Of a stretch of DNA of 19,466 nucleotides, positions 1-13,569 are shown piece after piece (within the stretch, counting starts at the first letter, position 1; each line of letters begins with the position of its first letter). Under the pieces are notes generated by a model. That model ran no database searches. It had not been told where the DNA came from and saw only the letters and a list, made by a program, of their open reading frames with translations. Source of the stretch: a virus. Taxonomy: Duplodnaviria > Heunggongvirae > Uroviricota > Caudoviricetes. The stretch is taken from IMG/VR virus record IMGVR_UViG_3300010430_000005, positions 1-19,466 of that record. One strand, written 5' to 3'. A program made the position numbers and the translations under genes.

Positions 1-2
1 TA

Positions 3-431
3 GAGAAAAGAATTTCGCCCAAAGGTCGACGTACAAAATACTACAACCATGCGAACGACGAAACATTATATCGAGCTGTACACCACAACCATCCTTCTAC
101 AGTATGGACAAGAGAATCGGTAGAAAACTATTCGTGGCATTATCAACATTTCCTAAGTCTATGTGAGGAGTATACCTATAGGTACGGTAAAGTTCATGCG
201 ACCTACACAAAACTACATGATGTTCTTGCCAAACCTCCAGAGAACATTCCTAATGTTCCCGAAACGCCATTTAAACTTGCTATGGGTAGCAATCCAGAAT
301 GTATGGATCATAAAGACCCTGTGAAGTCATATCGAAGTTTCTACAAAACCAAACAAGACAGATTCAAAATGGTGTGGTCAAAGCGAGAAGTTCCCGATTG
401 GTTCGACCAAAAAATTCTAGAATGTTGTTGA
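3..431 (+). CDS. Pyrimidine-dimer DNA glycosylase family protein (DenV/Pyr_excise-like), 5' partial
   Basis: Manual translation of frame 3 gives ...HHNHPSTVWTRESVENYSWHYQHFLSLCEEYTYRYGKVH...YRSFYKTKQDRFKMVWSKREVPDWF. This motif pattern is typical of the phage pyrimidine dimer glycosylase family. Stop TGA 429-431. Not in the ORF track because the start lies outside the window. Confidence 0.75.
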   Translation, partial: EKRISPKGRRTKYYNHANDETLYRAVHHNHPSTVWTRESVENYSWHYQHFLSLCEEYTYRYGKVHATYTKLHDVLAKPPENIPNVPETPFKLAMGSNPECMDHKDPVKSYRSFYKTKQDRFKMVWSKREVPDWFDQKILECC

Positions 432-456
432 CACATAGAGTTTAGTAAGTTAGTGT
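428..456 (+). promoter_or_regulatory. Sigma70-type early promoter
   Basis: TTGACA-N17-TAGTGT upstream of ORF 483, with the GTTGTTGACA context that recurs through the window. Confidence 0.6.
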
Positions 457-482
457 TAGACAACACTAAGGAGAATGTATAG

Positions 483-818
483 ATGCAACAAGCACTCGAA
501 ACACTTATTGAAGAAATCAAAGCAGACTACTATGCATACACCGTCCGCGATGGGGATTACGACAACATTAGCGAAACTTCGAAAGAAATGATTCGAAAGT
601 TTAACGACAGTATTTCCATTAAAGAAGGTCGCAATTACTTCAAAATTATCTCCAATAAAAGCGTTTGGGGTTTTGTTGTTAAAAAAGCAGACGACAAGAA
701 ATTCAAACAAGGCGATATTCTGAAAGCGGCGGGGTGGTCGGCGCCCGCACGTAACCATGCAAGGGGTAACGTTTTTGGAGTGTACGAAATCCAGTGGACC
801 GGCCCGAATTACATGTAA
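483..818 (+). CDS. Conserved hypothetical phage protein (111 aa)
   Basis: RBS AAGGAG. The motif KYxKI...VWGFV...GDILKAAGWxAPARNxARGN recurs in T4-like phages. Confidence 0.85.
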   Translation: MQQALETLIEEIKADYYAYTVRDGDYDNISETSKEMIRKFNDSISIKEGRNYFKIISNKSVWGFVVKKADDKKFKQGDILKAAGWSAPARNHARGNVFGVYEIQWTGPNYM

Positions 819-831
819 GGAGACGAAAATA

Positions 832-930
832 ATGATCGAGCAAGAATATGATGGTATGCTAGCAGTTTTTGGTTTTTCTGAACCGTTTGACTGTTGGGAC
901 TATTCTGACCTAGACCAACCTTACTATTAA
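832..930 (+). CDS. Small hypothetical protein (32 aa, MIEQEYDGMLAVFGFSEPFDCWDYSDLDQPYY)
   Basis: AAGGAG at 817-822, ATG 832, TAA 928-930. Confidence 0.5.
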   Translation: MIEQEYDGMLAVFGFSEPFDCWDYSDLDQPYY

Positions 931-946
931 GATGTGCTGCGCTCTT

Positions 947-954
947 TATAAATA
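947..954 (+). promoter_or_regulatory. T4-type late promoter
   Basis: TATAAATA directly upstream of dps. Confidence 0.75.
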
Positions 955-984
955 AAAAGAATACACATTTTAATGGAGAAAAGC

Positions 985-1413
985 ATGGAACAACTAATTG
1001 AGACAATGAAAGTGGTATTAGGCACCTCTACTGCATTGTATATAAAGGCCCAAAATTATCACTGGAATGTAACTGGTCCTAATTTTGCAGAATACCATAA
1101 TTTCTTTGGTTCATTCTACGAAGAAGTTTACTCTTCTGTAGACACAACTGCTGAAGAGATCAGAAAATTGGGAGCCTTTACTCCTGGATCTTTAGAACGT
1201 TTTCTAGAACTGTCTATTATAGAAGAAGAGAAGTCTATACCCACACCTGACGTTATGTTTGCTAGGTTGGCTAATAGCAACGACGCTATGCTACGAGTTC
1301 TTTACGAGGCTTGCGATAGTGCAGAAGAGATAGGTGCTAGAGGTACTGTGAATTATCTAGAAGAACGTATCGGAATACACGAAAAACATGCTTGGATGCT
1401 AAAAAGTTTCTAA
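985..1413 (+). CDS. dps: Dps/ferritin-like DNA-protection protein
   Basis: KAQNYHWNVTGPNFxEYHxFFxxFYEE...DxxAEEIRKLG and terminal HEKHAWML are Dps signatures. Start 985 is preceded by GGAG; alternative start 973. Confidence 0.92.
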   Translation: MEQLIETMKVVLGTSTALYIKAQNYHWNVTGPNFAEYHNFFGSFYEEVYSSVDTTAEEIRKLGAFTPGSLERFLELSIIEEEKSIPTPDVMFARLANSNDAMLRVLYEACDSAEEIGARGTVNYLEERIGIHEKHAWMLKSF

Positions 1414-1430
1414 AAAGACAAAAAAAGATG

Positions 1431-1460
1431 TTGACAACAGCAACAAACCTGTTATAAATA
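1431..1460 (+). promoter_or_regulatory. Composite early/late promoter for tRNA array 1 leader
   Basis: TTGACA 1431-1436 and TATAAATA 1453-1460. The same geometry occurs at 18391-18420. Confidence 0.75.
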
Positions 1461-1488
1461 AACAAGTATATTAACGAGGAATTTAAAA

Positions 1489-1554
1489 ATGACTATTTGC
1501 ATGTATGAAATCTGGGAACAGTATTTTATTAATCTTGAGGGGGCTCGAGACTAA
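1489..1554 (+). CDS. Putative attenuator leader peptide 1 (MTICMYEIWEQYFINLEGARD)
   Basis: RBS GAGGA 1476-1480, ATG 1489, TAA 1552-1554. Codons 3-14 all match tRNAs of the array immediately downstream. Confidence 0.8.
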   Translation: MTICMYEIWEQYFINLEGARD

Positions 1555-1588
1555 AGTCTATATGCAAATAGATTTTAATTTTTTAACA

Positions 1589-1617
1589 CCCTCTAAGGAA
1601 ACTTAGGGGGCTTTTTT
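1589..1617 (+). terminator. Intrinsic terminator (attenuator) directly before tRNA-Cys
   Basis: CCCTCTAAG-GAAA-CTTAGGGGG followed by CTTTTTT. Confidence 0.85.
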
Positions 1618-1690
1618 GTTGGCGGAGCAAGATTGGTAATGCGCGGGATTGCAAATCCTTGAGGTATCGGTTCGAGTCCGGTCGCCAACT
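1618..1690 (+). tRNA. tRNA-Cys(GCA)
   Basis: Acceptor GTTGGCG/CGCCAAC, loop TTGCAAA, T-loop TTCGAGT, U73. Confidence 0.88.
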
Positions 1691-1710
1691 CTAAAACATA
1701 AGGAGAGAAA

Positions 1711-1815
1711 ATGCAGTGCAATTGGCTAAAGTTAGGCGGTAAATGGTATTGTTCCCATTGCGGAAATCAAGTTAAGGGTAGCCATAAAAAGGTCTGCCTT
1801 TTAAAAAATATGTAA
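1711..1815 (+). CDS. Small Cys-rich protein (34 aa, CxxC)
   Basis: RBS AGGAG; MQCNWLKLGGKWYCSHCGNQVKGSHKKVCLLKNM. Confidence 0.55.
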   Translation: MQCNWLKLGGKWYCSHCGNQVKGSHKKVCLLKNM

Positions 1816-1821
1816 TATTTT

Positions 1822-1893
1822 GGTGTTGTAGCTCAGCGGTAGAGCAACAGACTCATATTCTGTCGGTCGTAGGTTCGAATCCTACTAACACCA
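1822..1893 (+). tRNA. tRNA-Met(CAT), probably elongator
   Basis: GGTGTTG/TAACACC acceptor, loop CTCATAT; lacks the initiator GGG/CCC anticodon stem. Confidence 0.85.
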
Positions 1894-1902
1894 CTAAAAC
1901 AT

Positions 1903-1974
1903 GGCCCCATAGATTATGGGTTAGATCACCTCCCTTTCAAGGAGGAGAATCGGGTTCGAGCCCCGGTGGGGCTA
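1903..1974 (+). tRNA. tRNA-Glu(TTC)
   Basis: CCTCC-CTTTCAA-GGAGG anticodon arm, full cloverleaf. Confidence 0.9.
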
Positions 1975-1980
1975 CTAATT

Positions 1981-2066
1981 GCGAGAGTGGCAGAGTGGTC
2001 GATTGCGGCGGACTGTAAATCCGTTTCTGAAAAGACGCGCTAGTTCGAATCTAGCCTCTCGCACCA
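1981..2066 (+). tRNA. tRNA-Tyr(GTA)
   Basis: GCGGA-CTGTAAA-TCCGT, long variable arm, CCA encoded. Confidence 0.92.
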
Positions 2067-2069
2067 TAT

Positions 2070-2143
2070 AGTGGATTAGCTCAGGTGGTTAGAGCGAAGA
2101 GCCGATAACTCTTAGGTCACTGGTTCGAGTCCAGTATCCACTA
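2070..2143 (+). tRNA. tRNA-Ile(GAT)
   Basis: AAGAG-CCGATAA-CTCTT; AGTGGAT/ATCCACT acceptor. Confidence 0.9.
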
Positions 2144-2156
2144 CTGAAAATATTTT

Positions 2157-2230
2157 GTGTTAGTAGCTCAGTCAGGTAGAGCACTCGGTTGAAGCCCGGG
2201 GTGTCGTTGGTTCGAATCCAACCTTTCACA
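2157..2230 (+). tRNA. tRNA-Phe(GAA)
   Basis: CTCGG-TTGAAGC-CCGGG; acceptor stem has two U.U mismatches. Confidence 0.78.
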
Positions 2231-2235
2231 CTTAT

Positions 2236-2309
2236 TGGTAGGTAAGGGAATTGGTATACCTGTCGGTTTTTGGTACCGAAGTTTGTGGGTTCGAGGCCCA
2301 CCCTACCAG
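2236..2309 (+). tRNA. tRNA-Gln(TTG)
   Basis: TCGGT-TTTTGGT-ACCGA; U1-A72 and G73 as in Gln. Confidence 0.82.
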
Positions 2310-2314
2310 CTTAC

Positions 2315-2388
2315 AGGGGCGTGGTGTAACGGTAGCACGACGGCTTCCAACTCCGTTAGTCCGGGTTCGAAACCTGGCGCCCCTGCCA
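2315..2388 (+). tRNA. tRNA-Trp(CCA)
   Basis: AGGGGCG/CGCCCCT acceptor, loop TTCCAAC, G73-CCA. Confidence 0.88.
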
Positions 2389-2423
2389 ATAAAAGAAATG
2401 TGCTTCGCACGTTCTTCGAACAC

Positions 2424-2451
2424 AAACCGATCATTCATTTGGTCGGTTTTT
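2424..2451 (+). terminator. Terminator closing tRNA array 1
   Basis: AAACCGATCA-TTCATT-TGGTCGGTTT followed by T-run. Confidence 0.65.
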
Positions 2452-2647
2452 CTATGACAACAAAGGTTCCTAAGACTGAAAATAAAACGAACAAAAATAA
2501 GGTACTATTACTTTCCGCCGTTGTATAAACGAGTTTAACATCATTCTCAAATCTGTCAAGCATAAAATAACCTTTTTTTCCGCTTGTGTTTTGGTATTTT
2601 TTATGTTAAGTTACGAAATAATGAAATACAAAGAAAGGTTATATATT

Positions 2648-3010
2648 ATGTGGGTTTTTATGAATGATGCTTTCTTCTCGATTGTAGAAGATTATCAAGT
2701 TCCCGAGCAGTTTGTTATCCGTGCTCGAATTAAAGGAGATCTCGAAAACGCGTTTGGGGTAGCGCCGAGTGAAGTTATCGTAGATGCAGGTACAGACTAT
2801 AAATTTCGAATTTATGCTGATCGAGAGTTTGTTGCTAAAACTATGCAAAATCATGTTATGGAGATCGACTACGATAATTTTAAAGATTCTATCTCCTTTA
2901 AGGATAAAGAGCGTAAGCTGTATTATTCTAAAGTCTGGGCTGTAATGAACACTTGGCAAGAAAAATTGTATGGTGTGCGAGATTGGTGGACTCAATACCG
3001 TCAGCGTTGA
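2648..3010 (+). CDS. Conserved hypothetical phage protein
   Basis: Start reassigned to ATG 2648 (GAAAGG RBS); MWVFxxxAFFSIV...VIRAR..DL...DYKFR...IDYDNFK pattern. Confidence 0.8.
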   Translation: MWVFMNDAFFSIVEDYQVPEQFVIRARIKGDLENAFGVAPSEVIVDAGTDYKFRIYADREFVAKTMQNHVMEIDYDNFKDSISFKDKERKLYYSKVWAVMNTWQEKLYGVRDWWTQYRQR

Positions 3011-3013
3011 TAT

Positions 3014-3021
3014 TATAAATA
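3014..3021 (+). promoter_or_regulatory. T4-type late promoter
   Basis: TATAAATA upstream of the 3056/3543 operon. Confidence 0.75.
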
Positions 3022-3055
3022 AGCGGAATACTCATTATATAGAGGAGCCGTTAAA

Positions 3056-3541
3056 GTGACGTACAAAGATTACATCAAAGAGCAGATGTCTTTAGTAGAA
3101 GCAGCCAAATTCGACAATTGGGTAAAGCCTTCTACTAAAGACATCGAATTAGAATACAAAATAGAATATCAAATGAAACCCCTGAAGCAATTGACCAACG
3201 ACGCTTTTCCTGAGTTGGAAGATTTCAAAAAGGCCGTTAAAGCTGCGCGTGTCGTTGAAGTGACGCCTTCTATGGATCGTAAAATCCAATATAGAAGCGG
3301 GACCAAGACTAAAGAGCAACTATTGGGTTTAATCCGAGGTTACGCGTCATATCCTGAATTCCGCAACGAAAAAACAATAGATGCCATTTACCAAGGATTT
3401 GCGTATAATAAGCCAATGAAGATGCCGTTTGTTGTTAAGTTTAAAAACGGCGACATGAGGATCATGGGCGGCAATACTAGAATGGATGTCGCTTTCCAGA
3501 TGGGTATTAACCCTAAAGTGCTTGTCATAGAGGTTAAGTAA
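3056..3541 (+). CDS. Hypothetical late protein, possible ParB/Srx-like fold, capsid-targeting-like N-terminus
   Basis: RBS GAGGAG, GTG start; IMGGNTR resembles the ParB/Srx motif; begins MTYKDYIKE. Confidence 0.75.
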   Translation: MTYKDYIKEQMSLVEAAKFDNWVKPSTKDIELEYKIEYQMKPLKQLTNDAFPELEDFKKAVKAARVVEVTPSMDRKIQYRSGTKTKEQLLGLIRGYASYPEFRNEKTIDAIYQGFAYNKPMKMPFVVKFKNGDMRIMGGNTRMDVAFQMGINPKVLVIEVK

Positions 3542-3542
3542 A

Positions 3543-5600
3543 ATGCAAAAGAATTTTAAAGAATATATAGAAGAGTCACTAAATAGCCCTTTAGAATTCT
3601 ACATGACTGATGATACAGACATGCCTAGAGAAATCTATGCCGCCTTAAATCTAGACGGCACCGATTATGGTTTTTCTCTTGTGTTGTCTAAAACGGAAAA
3701 GGTATATCTGTTACACACATATAGAATTCTGAACGGTAAGAAAAGATATTGGTCATTCAAGACTAAGGTCGATATTCGCCCAGTTTTGTCGACTTCGTTG
3801 AAGTTCGTAGAGGCGTGTATGCCGTTCATACAAAGCAAAATGGATGGTATAATAATAGGTATGCCTGGAGGTAAAGATGCCGCAAAATACCAACGATTAT
3901 TAACTCTCGCACTGAAGAAAACCTACATTAATAAGTTCAAGGTTGTTCCGGTTAAGAAGCTTTCTGATAAAGTGGTTCCTAAGCTATTCATCATAAAGAA
4001 GTCAGTCGATCCTGTTAAGTTGTTTAAGTCTCAAATAATGTCTAAGTATTTTGAGATTGTTCCGAATGCTTCTAATTTGGATGAAGTGTTGACTGACGAG
4101 GTTGTCGATGATATCGCCAAACCTAAAAAGAAAATGAAGCCAAATGCATCTACAACACCTTCGACAAAATATAGTTTCTATGGACTCGAAACAGACACGG
4201 ACCATTCAGATGAAAAAGTTCAAGCTGTGTTTGATATGCCATCATCTGCTGATTTTGTTGACCACACTAAAAACACAGATGAGAATCTAGATGTAGAGTT
4301 GCCTGTGTTTGATACATCGAATGTTGGTATGTTTGAAGCTATGGTTGCCCTTACTGTAAATATGCCTAGTATGTCAGCCAAGATTCGAGAAAAGGGGTTT
4401 GAAGAGTCGGAGTTTAATAAGGACAATTTCAAATGGGTTTTGGGGAAATTGGACAACCCTGCCATGAAAGATATTTTGTCGGTTGTAGGTCTTTTCGACA
4501 AAGTGTCCGGAAAATATGCAGAGCCTGAAAAGTTCATACCTTTGTTGAAGAAGTACGCTTCTGAATATAAGAAAACTATAGCAAGTAGCGGAGATTATGA
4601 CCCCGCATCTATTGATGTGTTGTATAAAATGGGGGAATACAATGAAAAGCTAAAGCAGAATTCAAACCCGAGTTTGAGTTCAAATATCCAAATAAAGAAA
4701 GAAGCTACCGCAGTTAAGATATCGGATCTTAAATCGGGCGTCCCGGGCAATTTAGCGCCCGAATTTGGCGACGATGGTGCATTTGATGTCAGCAGTCCGA
4801 TAAGTGAAATTAAAGAGTCTGTAACATGGTTAACTAAGACATACGAAAAAAGCCTAGACGAATTAGCTAACAACGACTATGGCACTTATTCTCATGTCTA
4901 TAAATATACTGGATCCAGCTACGATTATTATAATGATAGAATTAGGGAATCTGTCCAAGAACTAGCTACATCTTGGTCGGCTACAGGTGACGTCACGGAA
5001 AAAGTAATAGCTAACGCCGCAAAAAAGGTAATCGACGAAAGCCCTCATGTCGTTGATATGTATCGAGCATTTGAGAAAGTGATTCCTTCGCCCGAACCGC
5101 TATGGACGTATAGAGCAGGTACCATACCTGAAGAACTTGCAAATCTGATAGAGCCCGGATACGAGTACGTAGACCCTGCTTTCTTGTCTACTTCTTTGAG
5201 GCGCGACACTTCTTTCGGTAATAATTTGAGGTTAGCTATCTACAACCCTAAAGGAACAAAGATGTTGCCTATGTTAAATAGGTCTAAACACTCTATCGAG
5301 AAAGAAGTTATCCTACCTCCTATGTCTTTACTGAAAGTAATAAGGATTGACAAGGCAGAATATGGTCGTTATATACTTACTTGTGTTAATATGGGATCCC
5401 TAATGGACTCTTTCTTAAACAAAGCAGAATTAGCCGAACAAACACAGTTAAATATGATAGGAAGGTACGCAATGGCATTTAGCGAAGAAAAGAAAAAAGA
5501 AAAAGAATATGATCCTGACGGTAAGTACTCTTCAAATATTGACGATACTTTGAGTAAGGCTCTTATAGCTGCTTTGAAAAGAGCAAAGAAGCAGAAATAA
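3543..5600 (+). CDS. alt: Alt-like ADP-ribosyltransferase (C-terminal VIP2-type ART domain)
   Basis: R-S-E triad: LWTYRAG, FLSTSL, EKEVILP. Size 685 aa, late promoter, N-terminus MQKNFKEYIEE. Confidence 0.8.
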   Translation: MQKNFKEYIEESLNSPLEFYMTDDTDMPREIYAALNLDGTDYGFSLVLSKTEKVYLLHTYRILNGKKRYWSFKTKVDIRPVLSTSLKFVEACMPFIQSKMDGIIIGMPGGKDAAKYQRLLTLALKKTYINKFKVVPVKKLSDKVVPKLFIIKKSVDPVKLFKSQIMSKYFEIVPNASNLDEVLTDEVVDDIAKPKKKMKPNASTTPSTKYSFYGLETDTDHSDEKVQAVFDMPSSADFVDHTKNTDENLDVELPVFDTSNVGMFEAMVALTVNMPSMSAKIREKGFEESEFNKDNFKWVLGKLDNPAMKDILSVVGLFDKVSGKYAEPEKFIPLLKKYASEYKKTIASSGDYDPASIDVLYKMGEYNEKLKQNSNPSLSSNIQIKKEATAVKISDLKSGVPGNLAPEFGDDGAFDVSSPISEIKESVTWLTKTYEKSLDELANNDYGTYSHVYKYTGSSYDYYNDRIRESVQELATSWSATGDVTEKVIANAAKKVIDESPHVVDMYRAFEKVIPSPEPLWTYRAGTIPEELANLIEPGYEYVDPAFLSTSLRRDTSFGNNLRLAIYNPKGTKMLPMLNRSKHSIEKEVILPPMSLLKVIRIDKAEYGRYILTCVNMGSLMDSFLNKAELAEQTQLNMIGRYAMAFSEEKKKEKEYDPDGKYSSNIDDTLSKALIAALKRAKKQK

Positions 5601-5636
5601 CCAGAATCTAAGATTTTTGGTATTCTTTTAAAACCA

Positions 5637-5695
5637 ACACAACATATTGTGGTTTATTTGTAATATAGCACATGTAAAACCACAATATGTTGTGT
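5637..5695. repeat. 19-bp perfect inverted repeat with NrdR-box-like arms
   Basis: ACACAACATATTGTGGTTT (5637-5655) / AAACCACAATATGTTGTGT (5677-5695). Confidence 0.8.
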
Positions 5696-5722
5696 CTAAT
5701 TTTTGTCACGTATAAACTACAC

Positions 5723-5917
5723 ATGAATTTCCCTTCTATAGAAACAAAAGAAGATTATGACGAATTCAAACAGGCTTTTTGGTGTTGGTTTGATAGTCTT
5801 TCGATTGAAGAGAAGAAAAAGTTCTGGTATTACGGCGAAGATATAGCGGAAACCAACTTTTTCTTTAGATTTTTTTCAAAAAAGATAGAAGAAAACTGCT
5901 TCATCTGTTATAAATAA
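5723..5917 (+). CDS. Hypothetical protein (64 aa)
   Basis: MNFPSIETKEDYDEFKQAFWCWFDSL...; weak RBS. Confidence 0.55.
   Translation: MNFPSIETKEDYDEFKQAFWCWFDSLSIEEKKKFWYYGEDIAETNFFFRFFSKKIEENCFICYK
5909..5916 (+). promoter_or_regulatory. T4-type late promoter for array 2 leader
   Basis: TATAAATA. Confidence 0.75.
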
Positions 5918-5945
5918 AAACATATTTAGAAAGGATAAAAATTCG

Positions 5946-6035
5946 ATGTTTACGATAACAAGACTCCCTGTGCGCTCGAAAGGTGGATTATCAAATCCGT
6001 CTAACGATACGCTATTGCGAGGTTATCTTAAATAA
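5946..6035 (+). CDS. Putative attenuator leader peptide 2 (MFTITRLPVRSKGGLSNPSNDTLLRGYLK)
   Basis: RBS GAAAGGA ~5929-5935, ATG 5946, TAA 6033-6035; contains antiterminator TTGCGAGG 6015-6022. Confidence 0.78.
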   Translation: MFTITRLPVRSKGGLSNPSNDTLLRGYLK

Positions 6036-6061
6036 TCATATTTAGATTATGTATTTGGTAG

Positions 6062-6094
6062 GCCTCGCAAGTTTTTTAACTGCGAGGCTTTTTT
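6062..6094 (+). terminator. Intrinsic terminator (attenuator) before tRNA array 2
   Basis: GCCTCGCA-agttttttaac-TGCGAGGC then TTTTTT. Confidence 0.88.
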
Positions 6095-6207
6095 GTTGTT
6101 GACAAGGAACATTCGATAACGTAAAACACATTTGTTGACGAGACGAAAAGAATAAGACACGTGATAGTGTTTAATATTTAGATTCTCTAGTTAGCAAAAA
6201 AGTTGTT

Positions 6208-6236
6208 GACAAACTAAACAGACTTAGTTATGTTGA
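6208..6236 (+). promoter_or_regulatory. Sigma70-type early promoter (near-duplicate at ~6823-6851)
   Basis: AAAAAAGTTGTTGACAAACTAAA.AGACTTAGTTAT occurs twice; TTGACA-N17-TATGTT. Further TTGACA at 6099. Confidence 0.65.
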
Positions 6237-6289
6237 CGAAATAACGTAGACATAAGATGTTTACACGCTCTTTGAAAATTTGGTATTTG

Positions 6290-6510
6290 TCTTAGACTTA
6301 GGTCGATAATAGACTGAAAACAAAAACTACAAACCGATAACGTGTTCGGTAGTTTTGTTAGAGAGATCAAGTAAGGATATCCTGTAAATCTTGATTGAGA
6401 AACTCTGTTTTCATATGATCTTGGTATTTCGAGCGCATATGAAAATGGAGATTGGTACTGATCGGACGGCAAGGTCAGTTAAATAGCCCTAAAGATAAAG
6501 TCTGGGAATA
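6290..6510 (+). ncRNA. Candidate multibranched structured RNA
   Basis: Closing helix 6292-6299/6497-6504 with four internal hairpins; no convincing ORF. Confidence 0.45.
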
Positions 6511-6534
6511 GCCTAACACATAAGACTGTTTTGT

Positions 6535-6608
6535 GGGTCTATAGCATAATTGGTTAATGCAGTCCGCTCATAACGGAAAGATTCTTGGTTCAAGTCCAAG
6601 TGGACCTA
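6535..6608 (+). tRNA. tRNA-CAT, likely Ile2 (lysidine type), copy a
   Basis: GTCCG-CTCATAA-CGGAA; Ile2-like body; acceptor extended by a 13-bp flanking inverted repeat. Confidence 0.8.
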
Positions 6609-6626
6609 CAAAACAGTCTTAATTAT

Positions 6627-6705
6627 GGCCACGTGGTGAAATGGTAAACACAGCAGACTTAAAATCTGCCGCGCGAGCTTGCCGGTTCGAGTCCGGCCGT
6701 GGCTA
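6627..6705 (+). tRNA. tRNA-Leu(TAA)
   Basis: GCAGA-CTTAAAA-TCTGC, variable arm. Confidence 0.92.
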
Positions 6706-6712
6706 CTAAAAT

Positions 6713-6799
6713 GGAGAGGTGGTAGAGTCTGGTTTATTACAGCGGTCTTGAAAACCGCCGGACCGCAAGGTCCCCAGGGTTCGAATCCCTGTCTCTCCG
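6713..6799 (+). tRNA. tRNA-Ser(TGA)
   Basis: GCGGT-CTTGAAA-ACCGC, long variable arm, G73. Confidence 0.92.
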
Positions 6800-6980
6800 C
6801 TTACAAGTTAGGAAAAAAAGTTGTTGACAAACTAAAAAGACTTAGTTATTAATAACGAAACATAATAACTTGCTTTATAAGTAAAGGTGGTTAGGTGTAT
6901 AAACGTTGCTGTTAGCGCAACTACCTAATTTCCTTGAGGAGTAATAAAAGAGCGTCGTTTAGACGCTGCCTCAGAAACAT

Positions 6981-7056
6981 TCCCCGGTAGCTCAGTTGGT
7001 AGAGCAACTGACTGTTAATCAGTGGGTCGGCGGTTCGAGCCCGTCCCGGGGAGCCA
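6981..7056 (+). tRNA. tRNA-Asn(GTT)
   Basis: Canonical cloverleaf, GCCA end. Confidence 0.95.
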
Positions 7057-7095
7057 AAGTTTTAGTGCAGGTTGACGAAACCGTAAGACGCGAAT

Positions 7096-7172
7096 GGGCC
7101 TGTAGCATAATTGGTTAATGCAGTCCGCTCATAACGGAAAGATTCTTGGTTCAAGTCCAAGTGGGCCTACCA
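7096..7172 (+). tRNA. tRNA-CAT, likely Ile2, copy b
   Basis: Identical to the 6535 copy from D-arm to T-arm; ACCA end. Confidence 0.82.
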
Positions 7173-7257
7173 GTTACTTTAAAGATGGGAATAGCATTTA
7201 GCTCATCTTTAAAATCGTCCGATATATATATTTCGGACAAATTAAATGCAATTTTAT

Positions 7258-7330
7258 TGCGGAGTGGAGCAGTGGTCAGCTCGTCGGGCTCATAACTCGA
7301 AGGTCGGTGGTTCGAATCCACCCTCCGCAA
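7258..7330 (+). tRNA. Initiator-type tRNA-fMet(CAT)
   Basis: GCGGAGTGGAGCAG...CAGCTCGTCGGGCTCATAACTCGAAGG is an fMet-type body. Confidence 0.88.
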
Positions 7331-7338
7331 CTAAAGAC

Positions 7339-7416
7339 GCCCCCTTGGGCAAATTGGTAAAGTCGCTCGGTTTAGGTCCGAGAGTTGTCCCGGTTCGAGT
7401 CCGGGAGGGGGTACCA
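7339..7416 (+). tRNA. tRNA-Leu(TAG)
   Basis: CTCGG-TTTAGGT-CCGAG, ACCA end. Confidence 0.88.
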
Positions 7417-7479
7417 AAATTCAAGAAAGTTAACGTCTAGCTAATAGGCGTGACAGGCAGGGAGAGACCTGCAATTATT

Positions 7480-7554
7480 GGGAGTATAGCATAATTGGTT
7501 AATGCAGTCCGCTCATAACGGAAAGATTGACGAGTTCGAATCTCCCTTCTCCTA
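7480..7554 (+). tRNA. tRNA-CAT Ile2-like copy c, degenerate
   Basis: Same D and anticodon arms as copies a/b; T-stem only 3 bp. Confidence 0.55.
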
Positions 7555-7557
7555 CTA

Positions 7558-7620
7558 AAGGATCAGTTCCGCAAAAAGAAAAAACTTTTTATTTGGAAAA
7601 AAGCACAAAATGATCCTGTT
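7558..7620 (+). ncRNA. AGG..TTCMGCAA..CCTG element, copy A
   Basis: 7-bp stem AGGATCA/TGATCCT, conserved TTCCGCAA, internal hairpin with loop ATTTGGA. Confidence 0.7.
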
Positions 7621-7622
7621 TT

Positions 7623-7695
7623 GCCCCTATAGCTCAGCTGGTAGAGCAACTGATTTGTAATCAGTAGGTCCGCGGTTCAAGTCCGTGTGGGGGCA
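7623..7695 (+). tRNA. tRNA-Thr(TGT)
   Basis: CTGAT-TTGTAAT-CAG arm, canonical cloverleaf. Confidence 0.93.
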
Positions 7696-7712
7696 CTAAA
7701 TTGAATTAATTT

Positions 7713-7791
7713 GATCCCTTAGCTCAGCTGGTCATAGAGCGGCCGACTTTTAATCGGCAGGTCCTCGGTTCGAATCCGAGAGGGATCACCA
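7713..7791 (+). tRNA. tRNA-Lys(TTT)
   Basis: GCCGA-CTTTTAA-TCGGC, ACCA end. Confidence 0.92.
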
Positions 7792-7801
7792 TTATTCAAA
7801 T

Positions 7802-7875
7802 CTATCTGTAGCGCAGCCTGGTAGCGCATCTGTTTTGGGTACAGAAGGTCGTGGGTTCGAATCCCTCCAGATAGA
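7802..7875 (+). tRNA. tRNA-Pro(TGG)
   Basis: TCTGT-TTTGGGT-ACAGA. Confidence 0.88.
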
Positions 7876-7975
7876 CAAAAGGCAAGACCTTAGTTTCGTT
7901 AGTCAGTTATGCTTGACGGAAGGTTAGGGGACGACATGGACGCGAAAGGCGGGGGTTGCATGTTGATAAGGTTTT

Positions 7976-8040
7976 AAGGGTCAATTCCGCAAAAAAGAAA
8001 AAACTTTTTATTTGGAAAAAAGCACAAACTGACCCTGTTT
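7976..8040 (+). ncRNA. AGG..TTCMGCAA..CCTG element, copy B
   Basis: Stem AGGGTCA/TGACCCT (compensatory change relative to copy A); interior near-identical to A. Confidence 0.7.
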
Positions 8041-8135
8041 AATGATGGTAGAGATCTGTTTTTAGACTAGAAACTACTAGGGTAAAATGGCAGGTTTGGG
8101 ATAATTGCGAGATGGTGGGGCAAATTATTCGACAT

Positions 8136-8206
8136 GGTGCTATGGTATATGGGTATTATTCTTGTCTGTCTAACAAGAGAATCGGGTTCGAGTCCCGGTA
8201 GCACTG
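8136..8206 (+). tRNA. tRNA-Asp(GTC)
   Basis: CTTGT-CTGTCTA-ACAAG, G73. Confidence 0.85.
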
Positions 8207-8234
8207 CTAATGTTTATGTCTTATAGCATATTAT

Positions 8235-8261
8235 GGGGGATTAGTTCAGTTGGTAGAGCGC
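8235..8261 (+). pseudogene. 5' tRNA fragment (acceptor strand + D-arm)
   Basis: GGGGGATTAGTTCAGTTGGTAGAGCGC then abrupt loss of tRNA sequence. Confidence 0.65.
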
Positions 8262-8267
8262 AACAAT

Positions 8268-8343
8268 GGCCGAGTAGCTCAGTGGTAGAAGCGCTAGTTT
8301 TACACACTAGATGTCGTAGGTTCGATCCCTACCTCGGCTACCA
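8268..8343 (+). tRNA. tRNA-Val(TAC)
   Basis: CTAGT-TTTACAC-ACTAG, ACCA end. Confidence 0.9.
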
Positions 8344-8351
8344 TTTTTCTT

Positions 8352-8927
8352 TCAGCATGTTTTCTTTTGATAGATTCTGAAATTCTTTTTTTTGTGTTCC
8401 TCAGATTTAGCTTTACCCGTTAACGCTTTTCTGTTTTTCTCTCCTCTCGATTTATTTGTTTTCCTATTATTTTCCTTTATTTTTTCTATAGTTTCTTGTG
8501 TATGTTTTCTACCAGATGATTTTTCTCTCAGTATTTGTTTAGTTTTTTCTGAATGTTTATTTCCTAAATTGGGTTTATGATTTCTGGTGCTACTAGCTTT
8601 ACGGTTTGCTTCTAAACATATCATTCTTTGATGATGGGATAGCTCCCTAAACTGCCCATCAGAAGCTTTGTTTAAAATATAAAGAGCATAATTCATTTTA
8701 GTTACGTGTTCCTTTTCAGAAACCATTTTGGGTAATAATCTGTGACAAATATAATGCTCTTTAAATGTTAATAAAACCTTATTATCTTCACTATTATCAC
8801 CTCCAAGTGATTTAGGAATTATATGATGGGATTCAAAATAGATATCTTCTCCTTTGAATCTAGATTGTGATTTTGCTCTGTCTACTATCACATAATAAAT
8901 ATTGGTATATTTGTTGTTCAGAAACAT
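8352..8927 (-). mobile_element. HNH homing endonuclease with NUMOD3-like repeats
   Basis: ESHHIIPKSLGG...NKVLLTFKEHYICHRLL; NLGNKHSEKTK and GRKHTQETIEKI repeats; own late promoter (TATAAATA on minus strand, 8964-8971). Likely frameshift in a T-run near the 3' end. Confidence 0.9.
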
Positions 8928-8983
8928 TTATTATCCTTTACTTTAAAACAATTGCTCTACCAATATTTATAAAACAAAATTTT

Positions 8984-9016
8984 CAAGGTCGAAGGTTCGA
9001 GCCCGTCACCGACTAC
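8984..9016 (+). pseudogene. 3' tRNA fragment (T-arm + acceptor strand)
   Basis: AAGGTCGAAGGTTCGAGCCCGTCACCGACTA-CTA just beyond the HNH promoter. Confidence 0.65.
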
Positions 9017-9024
9017 TAAAATAC

Positions 9025-9053
9025 TTGACACGGCCTATGTATGTGTTATAAAT
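9025..9053 (+). promoter_or_regulatory. Sigma70-type promoter
   Basis: TTGACA-N16-TATAAT upstream of tRNA-Arg(TCT). Confidence 0.7.
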
Positions 9054-9058
9054 TTTAT

Positions 9059-9139
9059 GCCCCCTGTCCCCTCATCAGTCTTCTAAACTGATCCTTAAAG
9101 AGGGATGGAAGGTGCGGGGTTCGATTCCTCCAGGGGGCT
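9059..9139 (+). tRNA. Non-canonical D-arm-less tRNA-Arg(TCT)-like gene
   Basis: GCCCCCTG/CAGGGGGC acceptor, ATCAGT-CTTCTAA-ACTGAT anticodon arm, TTCGATT T-loop, no D-arm, enlarged variable region. Confidence 0.65.
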
Positions 9140-9189
9140 CTTAAAATCATATAAATACTTTTACTTTAAATGTTAGAAGTAGAAGTTAT

Positions 9190-9891
9190 ATGGATTGCCG
9201 ACGTATTTATGATTCTATCATAGAAAAACGAAAATTAGAAACACCAGAAGGGTATGTTGAGAAACATCATATTCTACCGAGAAGTTTGGGTGGAAACGAT
9301 GACGCGGAAAACATCGTATCTCTCACAGCCAGAGAACATTTTGTATGTCATTATCTATTGGCTAAAATGTACGAAAAAGAAACGTTTGAGTGGTATAAGA
9401 TGAATCATGCCTTTATCATTATGAAAGCATCTTCAGATAATCATAAAAGGTATTTCAACAGTAGGTTATACGAAAACTTGCGTAAAAATTTTTCATCTGT
9501 TATGTCAAAGTTGCAGACTGGCAGTGGCAACTCACAATATGGTACTAGATGGGTACATAACATATCTTTAAAGCAAAGTCGTAAGATCCCTAAAAACGAT
9601 CCTCTCCCTGATGGTTGGAGCGAGGGCAGGAAAATTAAATGGCATAATAAAATAGTATGCTGTGGACTGTGCAGTAAAGAATTCGAACAAAAGGCTACTG
9701 AGAGATTCTGCAGTGTTGAATGTAAAAAGAAACATCAACAACCAGATTTTATTTGTAGAGAAGAAGAATTCATTAATCTATACTGTGATTTAGGCTCAAT
9801 GAACAAATCGCTAAAGGCCATGGGTTATCCGGGAGCCATATCACATTATTATAGATGGGCGAAGAAGGTCATTGACTCAAACTCTTTATGA
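9190..9891 (+). mobile_element. HNH homing endonuclease
   Basis: EKHHILPRSLGG.DDAENIVSLTAREHFVCHYLL; late promoter TATAAATA 9150-9157. Confidence 0.9.
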
Positions 9892-9903
9892 AGTTACTTA
9901 TAT

Positions 9904-9923
9904 AAGTCCTCGCGGGATCGCCA
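9904..9923 (+). pseudogene. 3' tRNA fragment ending GCCA
   Basis: AAGT-CCTCG-CGGGATC-G-CCA = end of T-loop, T-stem, acceptor strand, CCA. Confidence 0.55.
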
Positions 9924-9987
9924 ATTTTATGTCGCGAAAGCATTTGGATGTTGATTTGTTTGGACAAATCTAGCGGCGCCAGAATTC

Positions 9988-10073
9988 AAGGAACATTTCC
10001 GCAAGCAACTTAGGATAAAAACAAACTTGAAATTTGTCTAAGTGGTTCGATTCCACAAATAAAGTGTTCCTGT
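9988..10073 (+). ncRNA. AGG..TTCMGCAA..CCTG element, copy C, with anticodon-like and T-like arms
   Basis: Stem AGGAACA/TGTTCCT; ACAAA-CTTGAAA-TTTGT; GTGG-TTCGATT-CCAC. Confidence 0.7.
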
Positions 10074-10081
10074 AGATTAAA

Positions 10082-10134
10082 AAGGATGAGTTCAGCAAAA
10101 TTTATGCATTTGAACAAGCACAGATCATCCTGTT
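10082..10134 (+). ncRNA. AGG..TTCMGCAA..CCTG element, copy D
   Basis: Stem AGGATGA/TCATCCT, TTCAGCAA, ATTTGAA..AAGCACA core shared with A/B. Confidence 0.65.
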
Positions 10135-10143
10135 TTATTTTGT

Positions 10144-10214
10144 GCGGGTATGGTGTAATGGTAACATGCGAGATTTCCAATCTCTTGTTGTCGGTTCGAG
10201 TCCGTCTACCCGCT
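10144..10214 (+). tRNA. tRNA-Gly(TCC)
   Basis: CGAGA-TTTCCAA-TCTCT, U73. Confidence 0.9.
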
Positions 10215-10222
10215 CTAAACTT

Positions 10223-10299
10223 CCCGATTTAGTGTTAGCGGTTAAGCACAGTAGATTGTGGATCTACTAGGTTTGGTTCGAATCCAAAGGTCGGGACCA
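10223..10299 (+). tRNA. tRNA-His(GTG), alphaproteobacterial type (no G-1, A73)
   Basis: GTAGA-TTGTGGA-TCTAC; ends GGTCGGG-A-CCA; base -1 is T. Confidence 0.88.
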
Positions 10300-10321
10300 A
10301 TTTTAACAGAAGGAGAAATGT

Positions 10322-10510
10322 ATGTACGGTATACGAGTTCCTCTTGCTGTGGACGATTATATTTGGGTAACTACTGACAGCCCGAATAACAGAATGTTTG
10401 AACATAAACCACTTCTGTTTTCCACAGAAGAAGAGGCTTACAAGGCGGCTAAAGTGTTTGGTCCTCTTGCGTCGGTAAAGAAATACGAAGAAACAGAAGC
10501 TTTTTGCTAA
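10322..10510 (+). CDS. Hypothetical protein (62 aa)
   Basis: AAGGAG RBS, compact ORF between tRNAs. Confidence 0.7.
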   Translation: MYGIRVPLAVDDYIWVTTDSPNNRMFEHKPLLFSTEEEAYKAAKVFGPLASVKKYEETEAFC

Positions 10511-10525
10511 TAAATCTTTGTATTT

Positions 10526-10598
10526 GGGGTGTTAGCTCAGTCGGGAGAGCAGTTGCTTTGCAAGCATCAGGTCATCGGTTCAAGTCCGATACACTCCA
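10526..10598 (+). tRNA. tRNA-Ala(TGC)
   Basis: GGGGTGT/ACACTCC with G3.U70, loop TTTGCAA. Confidence 0.93.
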
Positions 10599-10695
10599 CT
10601 AAAAGATTATCTTGCCAAGCAAGCAAGCGAAATGATGGTTGACATCATATAAAGAATAACATATAAATTATAATATGTAATCGAAGGAAAGTGAA

Positions 10696-10860
10696 ATGGA
10701 AGTAGTGTTTAAATTTCCGGTTGTGTTCGTTAAAACGAATGGAAAATACAATGTCTTGATTTCGCATGTGTTGTCGACTATCACGACTCTTGCTGCAATT
10801 ACTTTTATGCCTTGGGCAATGCCCGTTTGGATAGCACAAGCTCAACGTAGTTGCCTTTAA
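10696..10860 (+). CDS. Small predicted membrane protein (54 aa)
   Basis: AAGGAA RBS; MEVVFKFPVVFVKTNGKYNVLISHVLSTITTLAAITFMPWAMPVWIAQAQRSCL. Confidence 0.55.
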   Translation: MEVVFKFPVVFVKTNGKYNVLISHVLSTITTLAAITFMPWAMPVWIAQAQRSCL

Positions 10861-10867
10861 GAATATT

Positions 10868-10939
10868 GCGGGTATAGCTCAGGGGTAGAGCATTTCGTTG
10901 CCAACGAAAGTGTCGTGAGTTCGAATCTCATTACCCGCT
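10868..10939 (+). tRNA. tRNA-Gly(GCC)
   Basis: TTTCG-TTGCCAA-CGAAA, U73. Confidence 0.92.
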
Positions 10940-11024
10940 CAAAAAAATGTTCGACAAACAAAGAAAGTAGTTGACATACCTTATCAAATGTCTTATGTTG
11001 TTAATACAACAAAAGGAGACTACA

Positions 11025-11234
11025 ATGTTTACACTCGAACTTAGAAACGGTTTTGATAGCGAATTGGCCGAGGCACAAGGTCGAGTGTCTAAGACGGCTC
11101 CTGTTATGGCTGTTCTAATCGAAAAAAACGAAAACGGCATTCGGAGTGTAGTAGATGTCGTACAAGGTACGATGAAAGAAATTGAGAGCTACTTCAAAAA
11201 CAAAGACATTAAAGAAGTGCTTAACAAGATTTAA
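11025..11234 (+). CDS. Hypothetical protein (69 aa)
   Basis: AAGGAG RBS before ATG 11025; TTGACA promoter at ~10971. Confidence 0.75.
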   Translation: MFTLELRNGFDSELAEAQGRVSKTAPVMAVLIEKNENGIRSVVDVVQGTMKEIESYFKNKDIKEVLNKI

Positions 11235-11246
11235 AGTTGGTTATAT

Positions 11247-11319
11247 TGCGGGGTGGAGCAGCGGTCAGCTCGTCGGTTTCATATGCCGAAGGTCGTAGGT
11301 TCGAATCCTACCCCCGCAA
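11247..11319 (+). tRNA. Second initiator-like tRNA-Met(CAT) with altered anticodon arm
   Basis: fMet-type body; TCGGT-TTCATAT-GCCGA. Confidence 0.8.
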
Positions 11320-11430
11320 CAAAACTAGATTATTAGTGACGTGCCCTTACTATGTGTTTTGGGTTACATGACAATAAGGATCAATTTGCTAATGATTGCA
11401 TTGTCTTGACGATAATTTGGTGACGCTATT

Positions 11431-11553
11431 AAGGAACAGTTCAGCAAACAATGTTTACCAACCAGTGGGTCGTGGGTTCGAATCCCACCATCCGTCAAGT
11501 GGCGGATGTAGTTCAGAGGTAGAACAACCGGCAATACAAAAGATGTTCCTGTT
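11431..11553 (+). ncRNA. Element copy E enclosing a circularly permuted tRNA body
   Basis: AGGAACA/TGTTCCT stem and TTCAGCAA; inside, the tRNA 3' half (11462-11495) precedes the 5' half (11502-11531). Confidence 0.72.
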
Positions 11554-11555
11554 TT

Positions 11556-11632
11556 GGAAGCATAGCATAATTGGTTAATGCCCACGTCTCATAAACGTGT
11601 CGATCTTGGTTCAAGTCCAAGTGCTTCCACCA
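11556..11632 (+). tRNA. tRNA-CAT (Ile2-like family, copy d)
   Basis: Same D- and T-arms as 6535/7096; CACGT-CTCATAA-ACGTG; ACCA end. Confidence 0.8.
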
Positions 11633-11670
11633 TAAATACCTTTGTCGATGTTAAACACAAAGGAGATTTT

Positions 11671-11850
11671 ATGTCTAAATTCGCAATACTCAGAAACGAA
11701 AACATTGTTCAGCATATAATAATGGTCGGAGAACGTTTAAATTATAAAGATCCGAAAGCAGTCGACTTAGTATTCGACACTGAAAAGAATGCGGCAGAAG
11801 TTGCGAAAATATTGGGTGGCAAAGTTATCGAGTATGATGAAGCAGCTTGA
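11671..11850 (+). CDS. Hypothetical protein (59 aa)
   Basis: AAGGAG RBS before ATG 11671. Confidence 0.7.
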   Translation: MSKFAILRNENIVQHIIMVGERLNYKDPKAVDLVFDTEKNAAEVAKILGGKVIEYDEAA

Positions 11851-11852
11851 AT

Positions 11853-11935
11853 GCGGATGTGGTGGAACGGCAGACACGGGATGCTCAAAATATCCTGCCT
11901 CTAGTGGCGTGTGGGTTCGAATCCCACCATCCGCA
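11853..11935 (+). tRNA. tRNA-Leu(CAA)
   Basis: GGGAT...CTCAAAA...ATCC arm, variable arm, GCGGATG/CATCCGC acceptor. Confidence 0.88.
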
Positions 11936-12041
11936 CTAATATAGAATACCTTTGTAAGGAACTAGGCGCTATAATAATTGGGTTTGTTCGTAAATCCCGA
12001 CTATAACTAAGAAGAAAGGAAAATTTATGTCGTAGATTGAA

Positions 12042-12281
12042 ATGACTTGTAAAGAAGTGGTTTTCCACTTCAATAAGAAACATCTTGAAGATGACACAAT
12101 TCCTATGTGGGTTGTAAAAGCAAAGGGGCAGACACATTACGTCAAACATGTTGAATGTAATGTGGGATGGTCAACTAAAGAGACGCCAGATAATCCTTCA
12201 ACTAAAGGATCAATCAAGGTTAAGAATTGTCTCTTGACTATCAATGACCAAGAAGCGTTAATCGAAAAGGTGCCTCCCTAA
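12042..12281 (+). CDS. Conserved hypothetical T4-like phage protein
   Basis: VFHFNKKHLED.TIPMWV...YV.HV.C...WSTKETP...TKGSIK pattern. Confidence 0.8.
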   Translation: MTCKEVVFHFNKKHLEDDTIPMWVVKAKGQTHYVKHVECNVGWSTKETPDNPSTKGSIKVKNCLLTINDQEALIEKVPP

Positions 12282-12332
12282 CCAGAAAATGATTAATACC
12301 AAAAATCAGAAATCTAGTTAAGGAGAATTAAA

Positions 12333-12710
12333 ATGAGTATCGAACTAAAAATCAAATCCAAACATCTGGGCGAAGAAGCACGTATCATCCGTTTCGAAGA
12401 ACACAAAATCAAGAAACAAGCAAGGTGGTCTAGAGAACGACAAGGTTCTGCAACAGCAGATAGCATAATGCAAACTTGGCATTCGCTTAATCATCATAGA
12501 AGATACGATGTTCGAAATGAAAATCGAGCAACATTTCTAGCAAGAGCATATCTTGATAATAAACCTTATAGTTCTGTCGAACAAAAAAGGAATGAAGATC
12601 AAGAATACATATTCACTCAAAAAGTCTTGCCAAGAGTATTGACAATGGTGAATAAGTATGGTATCGATAAGATATCGATGCAAGGTATTGAAGATTGGTT
12701 AAAGACATAA
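12333..12710 (+). CDS. Conserved hypothetical phage protein
   Basis: AAGGAG RBS; LKIKSKHLGEEARIIRFEE motif. Confidence 0.85.
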   Translation: MSIELKIKSKHLGEEARIIRFEEHKIKKQARWSRERQGSATADSIMQTWHSLNHHRRYDVRNENRATFLARAYLDNKPYSSVEQKRNEDQEYIFTQKVLPRVLTMVNKYGIDKISMQGIEDWLKT

Positions 12711-12836
12711 CCTTTAATTCCTGGGCAAGAATTAAAACTGCCTAAATATTGATGTTGACTTGCAATGCTACGTGTGGTGTAAGCAACGCGGATGACCCGA
12801 ATACTGTAAAAAGTTGCAGGTTGCCAGTCCGCATTT

Positions 12837-12910: not shown

Positions 12911-12915
12911 CATAT

Positions 12916-13044: not shown

Positions 13045-13064
13045 ACATGGCAGAAAGGGCAGAA

Positions 13065-13511: not shown

Positions 13512-13512
13512 T

Positions 13513-13567: not shown

Positions 13568-13569
13568 TG

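Follow-up and report, generated by a model that had tools for sequence, protein, structure and literature searches.

A candidate codon-sampling attenuator at the head of a phage transfer RNA operon

Here, we report that the first transfer RNA (tRNA) array in a stretch of tailed-phage DNA (Caudoviricetes; IMG/VR record IMGVR_UViG_3300010430_000005, positions 1 to 19,466, the whole stretch analyzed and hereafter called the window) is preceded by a short leader open reading frame (ORF) that is written largely in the codons of the eight tRNAs downstream of it. On balance, we favor reading this element, at the head of a phage tRNA operon, as a ribosome-dependent attenuator that senses the supply of the phage's own tRNAs; that it is a leader-peptide attenuator as such, whatever its codons sense, we hold more firmly and regard as likely. 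The anatomy of the element, its conservation, selection that acts on the reading frame and not on the peptide, a complement that co-varies with the terminator arm, and the codon match itself were all observed directly. The layout is that of trp/his-type attenuation, as a preliminary description of this DNA had proposed, and it is conserved in related phages.

The leader promoter, read directly on the plus strand like all features of the operon, consists of a -35 hexamer TTGACA (1431-1436) and an extended -10 element TG n TATAAA (1450-1458; TG at 1450-1451, TATAAA at 1453-1458) with a spacer of 16 nucleotides (nt) between the hexamers. Our consensus promoter scan missed it, since the scan demands a T at the last -10 position, which is an A here; the same TTGACA / TATAAATA pair recurs upstream of every related leader. 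A Shine-Dalgarno (SD) sequence, GAGGA (1476-1480), lies 8 nt before the ATG of an ORF of 21 codons plus TAA (1489-1554), which begins ~24 nt past the predicted transcription start. An intrinsic terminator follows at 1589-1617, with a 9-base pair (bp) stem (1589-1610), a GAAA loop, a folding energy of -13.5 kcal/mol and a tract of six T (1612-1617), and the first base of tRNA-Cys (GCA; 1618-1691) stands directly past the T tract. Promoter, ribosome-binding site, ORF, terminator and abutting tRNA-Cys are thus where the preliminary description had placed them. Between tRNA-Cys and the next tRNA is a 34-codon Cys-rich ORF with a strong SD (1711-1815), i.e., within the operon, and no terminator was found in this gap. 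Seven tRNAs then follow at 1822-2388, spaced 3-12 nt apart: one with a CAT anticodon (Met or Ile2), Glu, Tyr, Ile-GAT, Phe, Gln and Trp. A hairpin with a T run at 2424-2453 (10-bp stem, z = -4.4) probably closes the operon. The short promoter-proximal ORF with its ribosome-binding site is kept in relatives, and in the window and 14 relatives the terminator stands between ORF and tRNA with no intervening promoter.

Codons 3-14 (1495-1530) are all read solely by the eight downstream tRNAs, each falling within the 14-codon set read by the eight array anticodons, and all eight species are sampled, as had been noted earlier. Codons 1 and 17 match the set as well, bringing the total to 14/21. The set accounts for 29% of the codons in the long ORFs of the phage; under a null based on phage codon usage, a run of at least 12 in a 21-codon ORF has P ~3e-6, and at least 14 hits together with all eight amino acids P ~8e-5. 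The match is therefore far beyond chance, as first described, but the naive estimate of ~2e-8 has to be corrected to the former of these values. Even this null overstates the significance, because the leader composition (C, E, I, M, N) is partly shared with the leaders of relatives; at a background of 55%, a 12-codon run still has a probability of ~0.5%. Independently of any model, the 12-codon run is the single longest of its kind across the six frames of the whole genome; runs of 10-11 array-1 codons are found at four other places.

The same genome offers a second leader. We scanned both strands, without regard to tRNAs, for terminator-like hairpins that have the end of an SD plus ATG ORF of 12-60 codons at a distance of 12-50 nt upstream. 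The genome has 80 terminator-like hairpins; three have such an ORF, and two of these also have a complement to the hairpin 5' arm inside the ORF. Both are in the tRNA region, ahead of array 1 (ORF 1489-1554) and array 2 (ORF 5946-6035), respectively. The second module (5946-6094) consists of a 29-codon ORF (5946-6035) and a strong terminator (6062-6094); in codons 24-26, 8 nt (6015-6022) are perfectly complementary to the 5' arm of this terminator. Its codons are enriched for those of array 2 (16/28) and depleted of those of array 1 (2/28), and it covers all ten amino-acid types of array 2. When codons exclusive to one array are counted, leader 1 has 12 for array 1 and 2 for array 2, and leader 2 has 2 and 16 (Fisher 3.7e-5). 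Both the run in leader 1 and this reciprocal split make the leader codons correspond to the products of the genes that follow. Leader 2 ends in R-G-Y-x-x-stop, as the leaders of relatives do, and looks like a paralogue judging by its sequence; one ancestral all-purpose leader that was duplicated and then specialised would fit these data.

The putative antiterminator strand also has a conserved position. In leader 1, CTTGAGGGG (1534-1542), which the preliminary description had recognized as a near-copy of the terminator 3' arm, can indeed pair with the 5' arm CCCTCTAAG (1589-1597) through 8 bp with one bulge, at a duplex energy of -9.7 to -12.8 kcal/mol; the full strand, CTTGAGGGGG (1534-1543), spans codons 16-19. 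When the best complement to the terminator 5' arm was sought across the whole of each leader, it was found in the last ORF codons, -18 to -10 nt from the stop, in 5/5 families. The complement changes together with the arm: the pair is CUUGAGGG / CCCUCUAAG in leader 1 (ORF 1489-1554), UUGCGAGG / CCUCGCAA in the leader at 5946-6035, and GAGGGG / CCCCUC or GGAGGCUU / AAGCCCUCC in other families. Dinucleotide shuffles of each ORF reach the observed complement strength in the last 30 nt with P values of 0.045, 0.0025, 0.058, 0.028 and 0.015 in the five families, and the gap from stop codon to stem is 25-34 nt in all five. With an assumed ribosome footprint of about -15 to +12 from the first base of the stop codon, the antiterminator strand is within the footprint of a ribosome that has the stop codon in its A site in every family, so such a ribosome would mask it. 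A strand lying under the stop-codon ribosome is the defining geometry of trp/his-type attenuators.

Related loci were located by using the Dps-like gene just upstream of the leader (973-1413; Pfam Ferritin) as an anchor. Fourteen distinct relatives, from uncultured phages, share one layout: the Dps gene is followed by the promoter, an SD, an ORF of 36-38 codons, a pair of small hairpins, a terminator with a stem of 12-13 bp and then tRNA-Cys, the last of which begins 3-8 nt past the T tract. Two further families, likewise with promoter, SD, ORF and terminator, lie between the Dps-like gene and tRNA genes: L005, with a 29-codon leader followed by a degenerate tRNA, and L083, with a 41-codon leader followed by a promoter. 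The 3' end of the window leader aligns with those of the relatives (ATTAAT..GAGGGGG..about 10 nt..TAA), and on this alignment it is a shortened homologue of them. In the 14-member family, the variable sites number 16/16/18 over codon positions 1/2/3 without third-position excess, no substitution creates a stop, and all indels but one are multiples of three. The ratio of nonsynonymous to synonymous polymorphism (pN/pS) is 0.67 with pS 0.18 in the leader ORF, and 0.17 with pS 0.61 and variable sites 56/29/130 in the Dps gene of the same loci. From pN/pS, the in-frame indels and the lack of stops, it follows that the frame is preserved while the peptide is barely constrained; the ORF is thus probably translated without serving as a protein gene. 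Such unusually conserved synonymous sites are expected of a regulatory leader in which the RNA, and perhaps codon identity, matters. RNAalifold on the relatives gave a conserved structured interior, with compensatory changes in the inner terminator stem. In a ~97% identical variant from one public run, the 66-nt ORF is unaltered and the SD reads AAGGA, still an SD; the 34-nt spacer after the ORF carries six substitutions and one indel. Two A>G changes in the spacer are opposite U in the long-range helix described below, so that pairing is kept as G-U, and one change adds a terminator pair.

Comparable modules are present in cultured Caulobacter phages, an independent lineage. In the depositors' annotation of phiCbK (JX100813), three tRNA blocks are each immediately preceded by a rho-independent terminator. 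The Pro/Lys/Leu/Ala/Ser block is preceded by gp083 (45 codons), in which 23/44 codons are those of the block (P = 3e-5), and the Phe/Val/Ile/Gln block by a 32-codon ORF in which 9 of codons 7-18 are in the block set; a third short ORF, at the Glu/Asp block, showed no codon match. The modules of short ORF and terminator are at 49540-49769 and 51341-51502 in JX100813, and at 49745-49977 and 51649-51803 in CcrRogue (JX100814), and the composition of their ORFs matches the tRNA block behind. The 32-codon ORF (51341-51439) appears leaderless. The phiCbK genome paper is silent on leaders and attenuation.

We propose the following course of events. Host RNA polymerase would start at ~1465, and a ribosome would translate the 21-codon leader. 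If it reached the stop codon quickly, it would cover 1534-1543, the terminator at 1589-1617 would form, and transcription would end before tRNA-Cys. If it were delayed on codons 3 to ~12, the long-range helix between 1493-1505 and 1559-1571 would open and 1534-1543 would be left exposed, to take the terminator 5' arm and permit read-through into tRNA-Cys, the small ORF and the seven further tRNAs. Since the delaying codons are those of the eight array tRNAs, this would make a feedback loop on tRNA supply in which slow decoding yields more phage tRNA. Termination and read-through, ribosome-polymerase coupling, co-transcription of the eight tRNAs and a natural agent of tRNA depletion are the parts of this scheme that we infer, and host anticodon nucleases as the trigger are speculation.

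Folding calculations on this leader give a less clear-cut picture. In the minimum-energy fold (z = -5.1), the 13-bp long-range helix pairs codons 2-6 (1493-1505), which lie under a ribosome translating the first codons, with 1559-1571. This helix keeps a 7-bp local hairpin with a GGGG loop (1533-1551, -8.4 kcal/mol), which competes for the antiterminator strand, in a junction. Forcing the antiterminator before the terminator 3' arm exists costs +6.4 kcal/mol on the naked RNA and +1.2 to +2.3 kcal/mol with a ribosome on codons 4-11; the cost is lower because the ribosome breaks the long-range helix. The modeled shift in energy runs in the predicted direction, but the antiterminator is still not favored, and this is no proof of a switch. 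The earlier claim that stalling frees the antiterminator therefore does not hold as it was put: the strand sits in its own hairpin, and a ribosome lowers the cost of pairing to about +1 to +2 kcal/mol only.

Several observations weigh against the reading of the leader as a sensor of its own tRNAs. At equilibrium, the terminator is kept (P ~0.996) at every ribosome position, and in no case does the proposed antiterminator give the fold of lowest energy; this dominance is weak evidence, as the same is seen in classical attenuators such as trp. The local hairpin that holds the antiterminator strand is not opened by a stalled ribosome. Codon 13, for Phe, is too near the antiterminator, i.e., a ribosome there would mask part of it. 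Each amino acid occurs one to three times in the leader, scattered and never in tandem, so there is no clustering of regulatory codons. The leaders of relatives share the C/E/I/M/N-rich part of this leader, in their conserved 3' half. The tRNA with a CAT anticodon at 1822 could be tRNA-Met or a lysidine-modified tRNA-Ile2; if it is Ile2, codon 5 drops out and the run splits into 2 + 9. Its BLAST matches are tRNA bodies of other isotypes, and comparison with the CAT and TAT tRNAs of relatives was not decisive. At L083 and at leader 2, a promoter is found downstream of the terminator, at the latter as promoter-like TTGACA boxes between the terminator and the start of array 2 (6535).

On codon tracking, the relatives are neutral. 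The preliminary description had proposed to ask whether leader codons track tRNA content in homologous leaders while the peptide varies. The layout is kept, the frame stays open and the peptide drifts; the relatives' leaders hold 18-19 amino-acid types, which neither shows nor refutes tracking there. Their arrays decode at most 13 amino acids, all of them present in the leader, the contigs being fragments. In these loci, the terminator precedes tRNA-Cys alone, and in some of them the large array comes only after a gene on the minus strand. The CcrRogue homologue of gp083 retains Ser codons ahead of a block that lacks tRNA-Ser. As 41/45 residues of phiCbK gp083 belong to seven amino-acid types that are the union of the phiCbK and CcrRogue blocks, this case suggests an ancestral match with lag and not strict tracking.

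Part of this evidence would fit a generic translation-coupled attenuator, in which the tRNA operon is tied to whether ribosomes translate at all (early versus late infection, or global capacity) and codon identity has no function, the match being a product of ancestry and chance. Such an attenuator would readily account for relatives' leaders that hold 18-19 of the 20 amino acids and precede tRNA-Cys only, and for the shared C/E/I/M/N-rich part; RNA structure alone can explain the low synonymous divergence. It gives no account of a 12-codon run that is the longest in the genome and takes in all eight species, of a leader 2 with the complementary codon set matching array 2, or of block-matched leaders in phiCbK as well, and we consider it unlikely. 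The downstream promoters at L083 and leader 2, together with the strong structure of the leader RNA (z = -5.1, conserved helices), would instead suit a stand-alone early unit made up of a promoter, a small ORF or structured RNA and its own terminator, the tRNAs being served by constitutive leakage or by other promoters. Units of this kind are common in T4-like early regions. Liberated attenuator RNAs are also known to act in trans elsewhere (PMC6614838). We judge this explanation improbable: in the window, as in 14 relatives, only 0-8 nt separate the T tract from tRNA-Cys, too few to accommodate a promoter; the peptide shows no conservation; and the explanation has no role for a terminator-arm complement whose distance from the stop codon is fixed.

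It could also be argued that the hairpin and U tract are not a regulated terminator but a 5' leader element through which the precursor tRNA is processed or stabilized, in the context of ribonuclease (RNase) P or RNase E, with the ORF incidental. The last U of the tract directly adjoins the tRNA 5' end, and bacterial RNase P prefers a U at -1. However, a GC-rich stem of 9-13 bp with 5-6 U behind it has the canonical form of an intrinsic terminator, the element is present only at the first tRNA of the unit, and the ORF is open across the relatives with in-frame indels, which makes this account very unlikely. Least credible of all is pure chance, i.e., an accidental small ORF that happens to lie downstream of a promoter-like sequence and ahead of the terminator belonging to the upstream gene. 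In favor of chance are the four other runs of 10-11 array-1 codons in the genome and the fact that the pattern was picked out post hoc. The leader is nevertheless conserved with its frame intact, the complementarity keeps its position, and the codon split is reciprocal, which leaves such an accident hardly any probability.

An attenuator that senses the supply of its own tRNAs has partial counterparts among known systems. The enterobacterial multivalent attenuators are the nearest in form: the ilvGMEDA leader senses Leu/Val/Ile and the thr leader Thr/Ile. Like these, the phage leader combines a short promoter-proximal ORF and an intrinsic terminator with a candidate alternative pairing in which the terminator 5' arm would be captured, the upstream strand of that pairing lying under the stop-codon ribosome, and several amino acids are sampled by one leader. 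Unlike them, it controls tRNAs and not biosynthetic enzymes, samples eight species with one to three scattered codons each and no clustered repeats, and plausibly senses tRNA supply rather than amino-acid supply; it has no sequence or Rfam relationship to them. With trpL, hisL, leuL and pheL, it shares the 1:2 / 2:3 / 3:4-type logic, the long-range helix and the local hairpin here holding the antiterminator strand when no ribosome is stalled, and the energy gap narrows when a ribosome is on the early codons. It differs from them in being phage-encoded and without tandem regulatory codons, and in that the competitor of its antiterminator lies downstream, so that a stalled ribosome leaves the competitor uncovered. 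As in pheST with its pheM leader, and in T-boxes, the product under control is part of the decoding machinery and usable tRNA is the signal, whereas pheM senses one amino acid and controls a synthetase, and T-boxes bind directly to uncharged tRNA and need no translation. Neither a T-box nor any other Rfam family matched here: for 1400-1640 and one relative, all families were below threshold, the best at 23.6 bits against a cut-off of 54. By covariance model, nothing marks the element as a T-box riboswitch or another catalogued cis-regulatory RNA.

The window is the first 19.5 kb of a phage genome of 150,280 bp (G+C 40%) and holds all 30 tRNA genes of that genome as well as a permuted two-piece transfer-messenger RNA. 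Nothing close to this phage was found in the phage collection, the best protein matches being ~33% identical to Vibrio phage proteins, and among public runs the stretch occurs in one marine sediment metagenome and one other study, with no RNA run listed for it. Near and distant BLAST searches of 1380-2420 against phages returned tRNA-sized matches only and no relative of the leader; a search of viral contigs with two exact patterns, for leader and terminator, gave zero matches, and no tRNAs were found near the relatives of the protein encoded at 2591-3010. The ORF at 1711-1815 has four Cys, only faint zinc-ribbon matches in Pfam, and is kept in the ~97% variant except at codon 2. Seven tRNAs with a CAT anticodon are encoded by the phage: four near copies, two with initiator-like bodies, and the one at 1822, which is unique; the others are located at 6535-6609, 7096-7172, 7480-7555 and 11556-11632, and at 7258-7331 and 11247-11320. 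At least one CAT tRNA is probably a lysidine Ile2, because the phage is without a TAT tRNA.

Some further features of the related loci are recorded here. Every leader has exactly one Cys codon (codon 4 in the window, codon 5 in L005, codon 19 in L083), and in the alignment of the 14-member family (A1) it stands in either of two columns (TGC...GGT or GGC/AGC...TGT), loss at one going with gain at the other. The single Cys codon may reflect sensing of tRNA-Cys; its chance probability is ~2%, and RNA pairing is an alternative. Whether leaders are unusually rich in amino-acid types was also considered and dropped, the signal being weak (P = 0.10, 0.83, 0.025, 0.044). In L005, the degenerate tRNA-like sequence (4674-4741; 23.7 bits) has CAT in its anticodon loop and occupies the position that tRNA-Cys has after the terminator in relatives. 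In this phage and in relatives, the stretch that separates the leader/terminator, or tRNA-Cys, from the array of tRNAs that comes next contains a conserved non-coding element (window 6264-6417; L083 3376-3493; L005 4818-4874; related locus L008 about 4815-4905); it starts with CACGCTCWTTGAAAATTT, has a long-range pairing CTGAAAACAG / CTGTTTTCA, and gave no match in Rfam. In L008 (5543-5692) and L010 (4564-4710), tRNA-Lys is immediately preceded by an ORF of ~48 codons, conserved and very basic, and the end of this ORF overlaps the tRNA 5' end; tblastn of the genome studied here found no homologue. Just before a CAT tRNA in L083 (3500-3600) are two T-arm-like GGTTCGAATCC motifs, uncalled as tRNA, which may be tRNA fragments or pieces of permuted tRNAs.

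The reason for the presence of tRNA genes in large phages has been under debate for some fifty years (PMC10264068). Phage tRNA genes are discussed as counter-defence against host systems that cleave tRNAs (PMC10264068, PMC11464382, PMC11555353); such a role gives a reason for a phage to replace depleted tRNAs, and the papers appear to concern the tRNAs themselves and not their regulation. We found no description of the regulation of phage tRNA genes in the searchable literature, and searches of full texts turned up no account of tRNA genes, phage or otherwise, being controlled through leader-peptide attenuation; control by the slowing of a ribosome on particular codons has so far been described only for amino-acid and synthetase genes. 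It is conceivable, though we are doubtful, that the leaders at 1489-1554 and 5946-6035 form a set of multi-input tRNA-supply sensors that descend from a single all-amino-acid leader, of the kind relatives still have, and split the amino acids along with the arrays, each array being switched on when any of its own tRNAs is depleted, e.g., by host anticodon nucleases. If this were true, the pair would be a self-regulating counter-defence, and the phiCbK-like modules suggest that it may be a general feature of tRNA-rich phages.

A leader written in the codons of its array would mean that a phage gauges decoding speed separately for each codon set and replenishes only what is short. It would take leader-peptide attenuation beyond amino-acid metabolism and into the decoding machinery itself, would provide a natural multi-input sensor of tRNA availability, and would make the counter-defence hypothesis directly testable. 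Because similar modules are present in phiCbK, a cultured Caulobacter phage, the experiments are feasible now.

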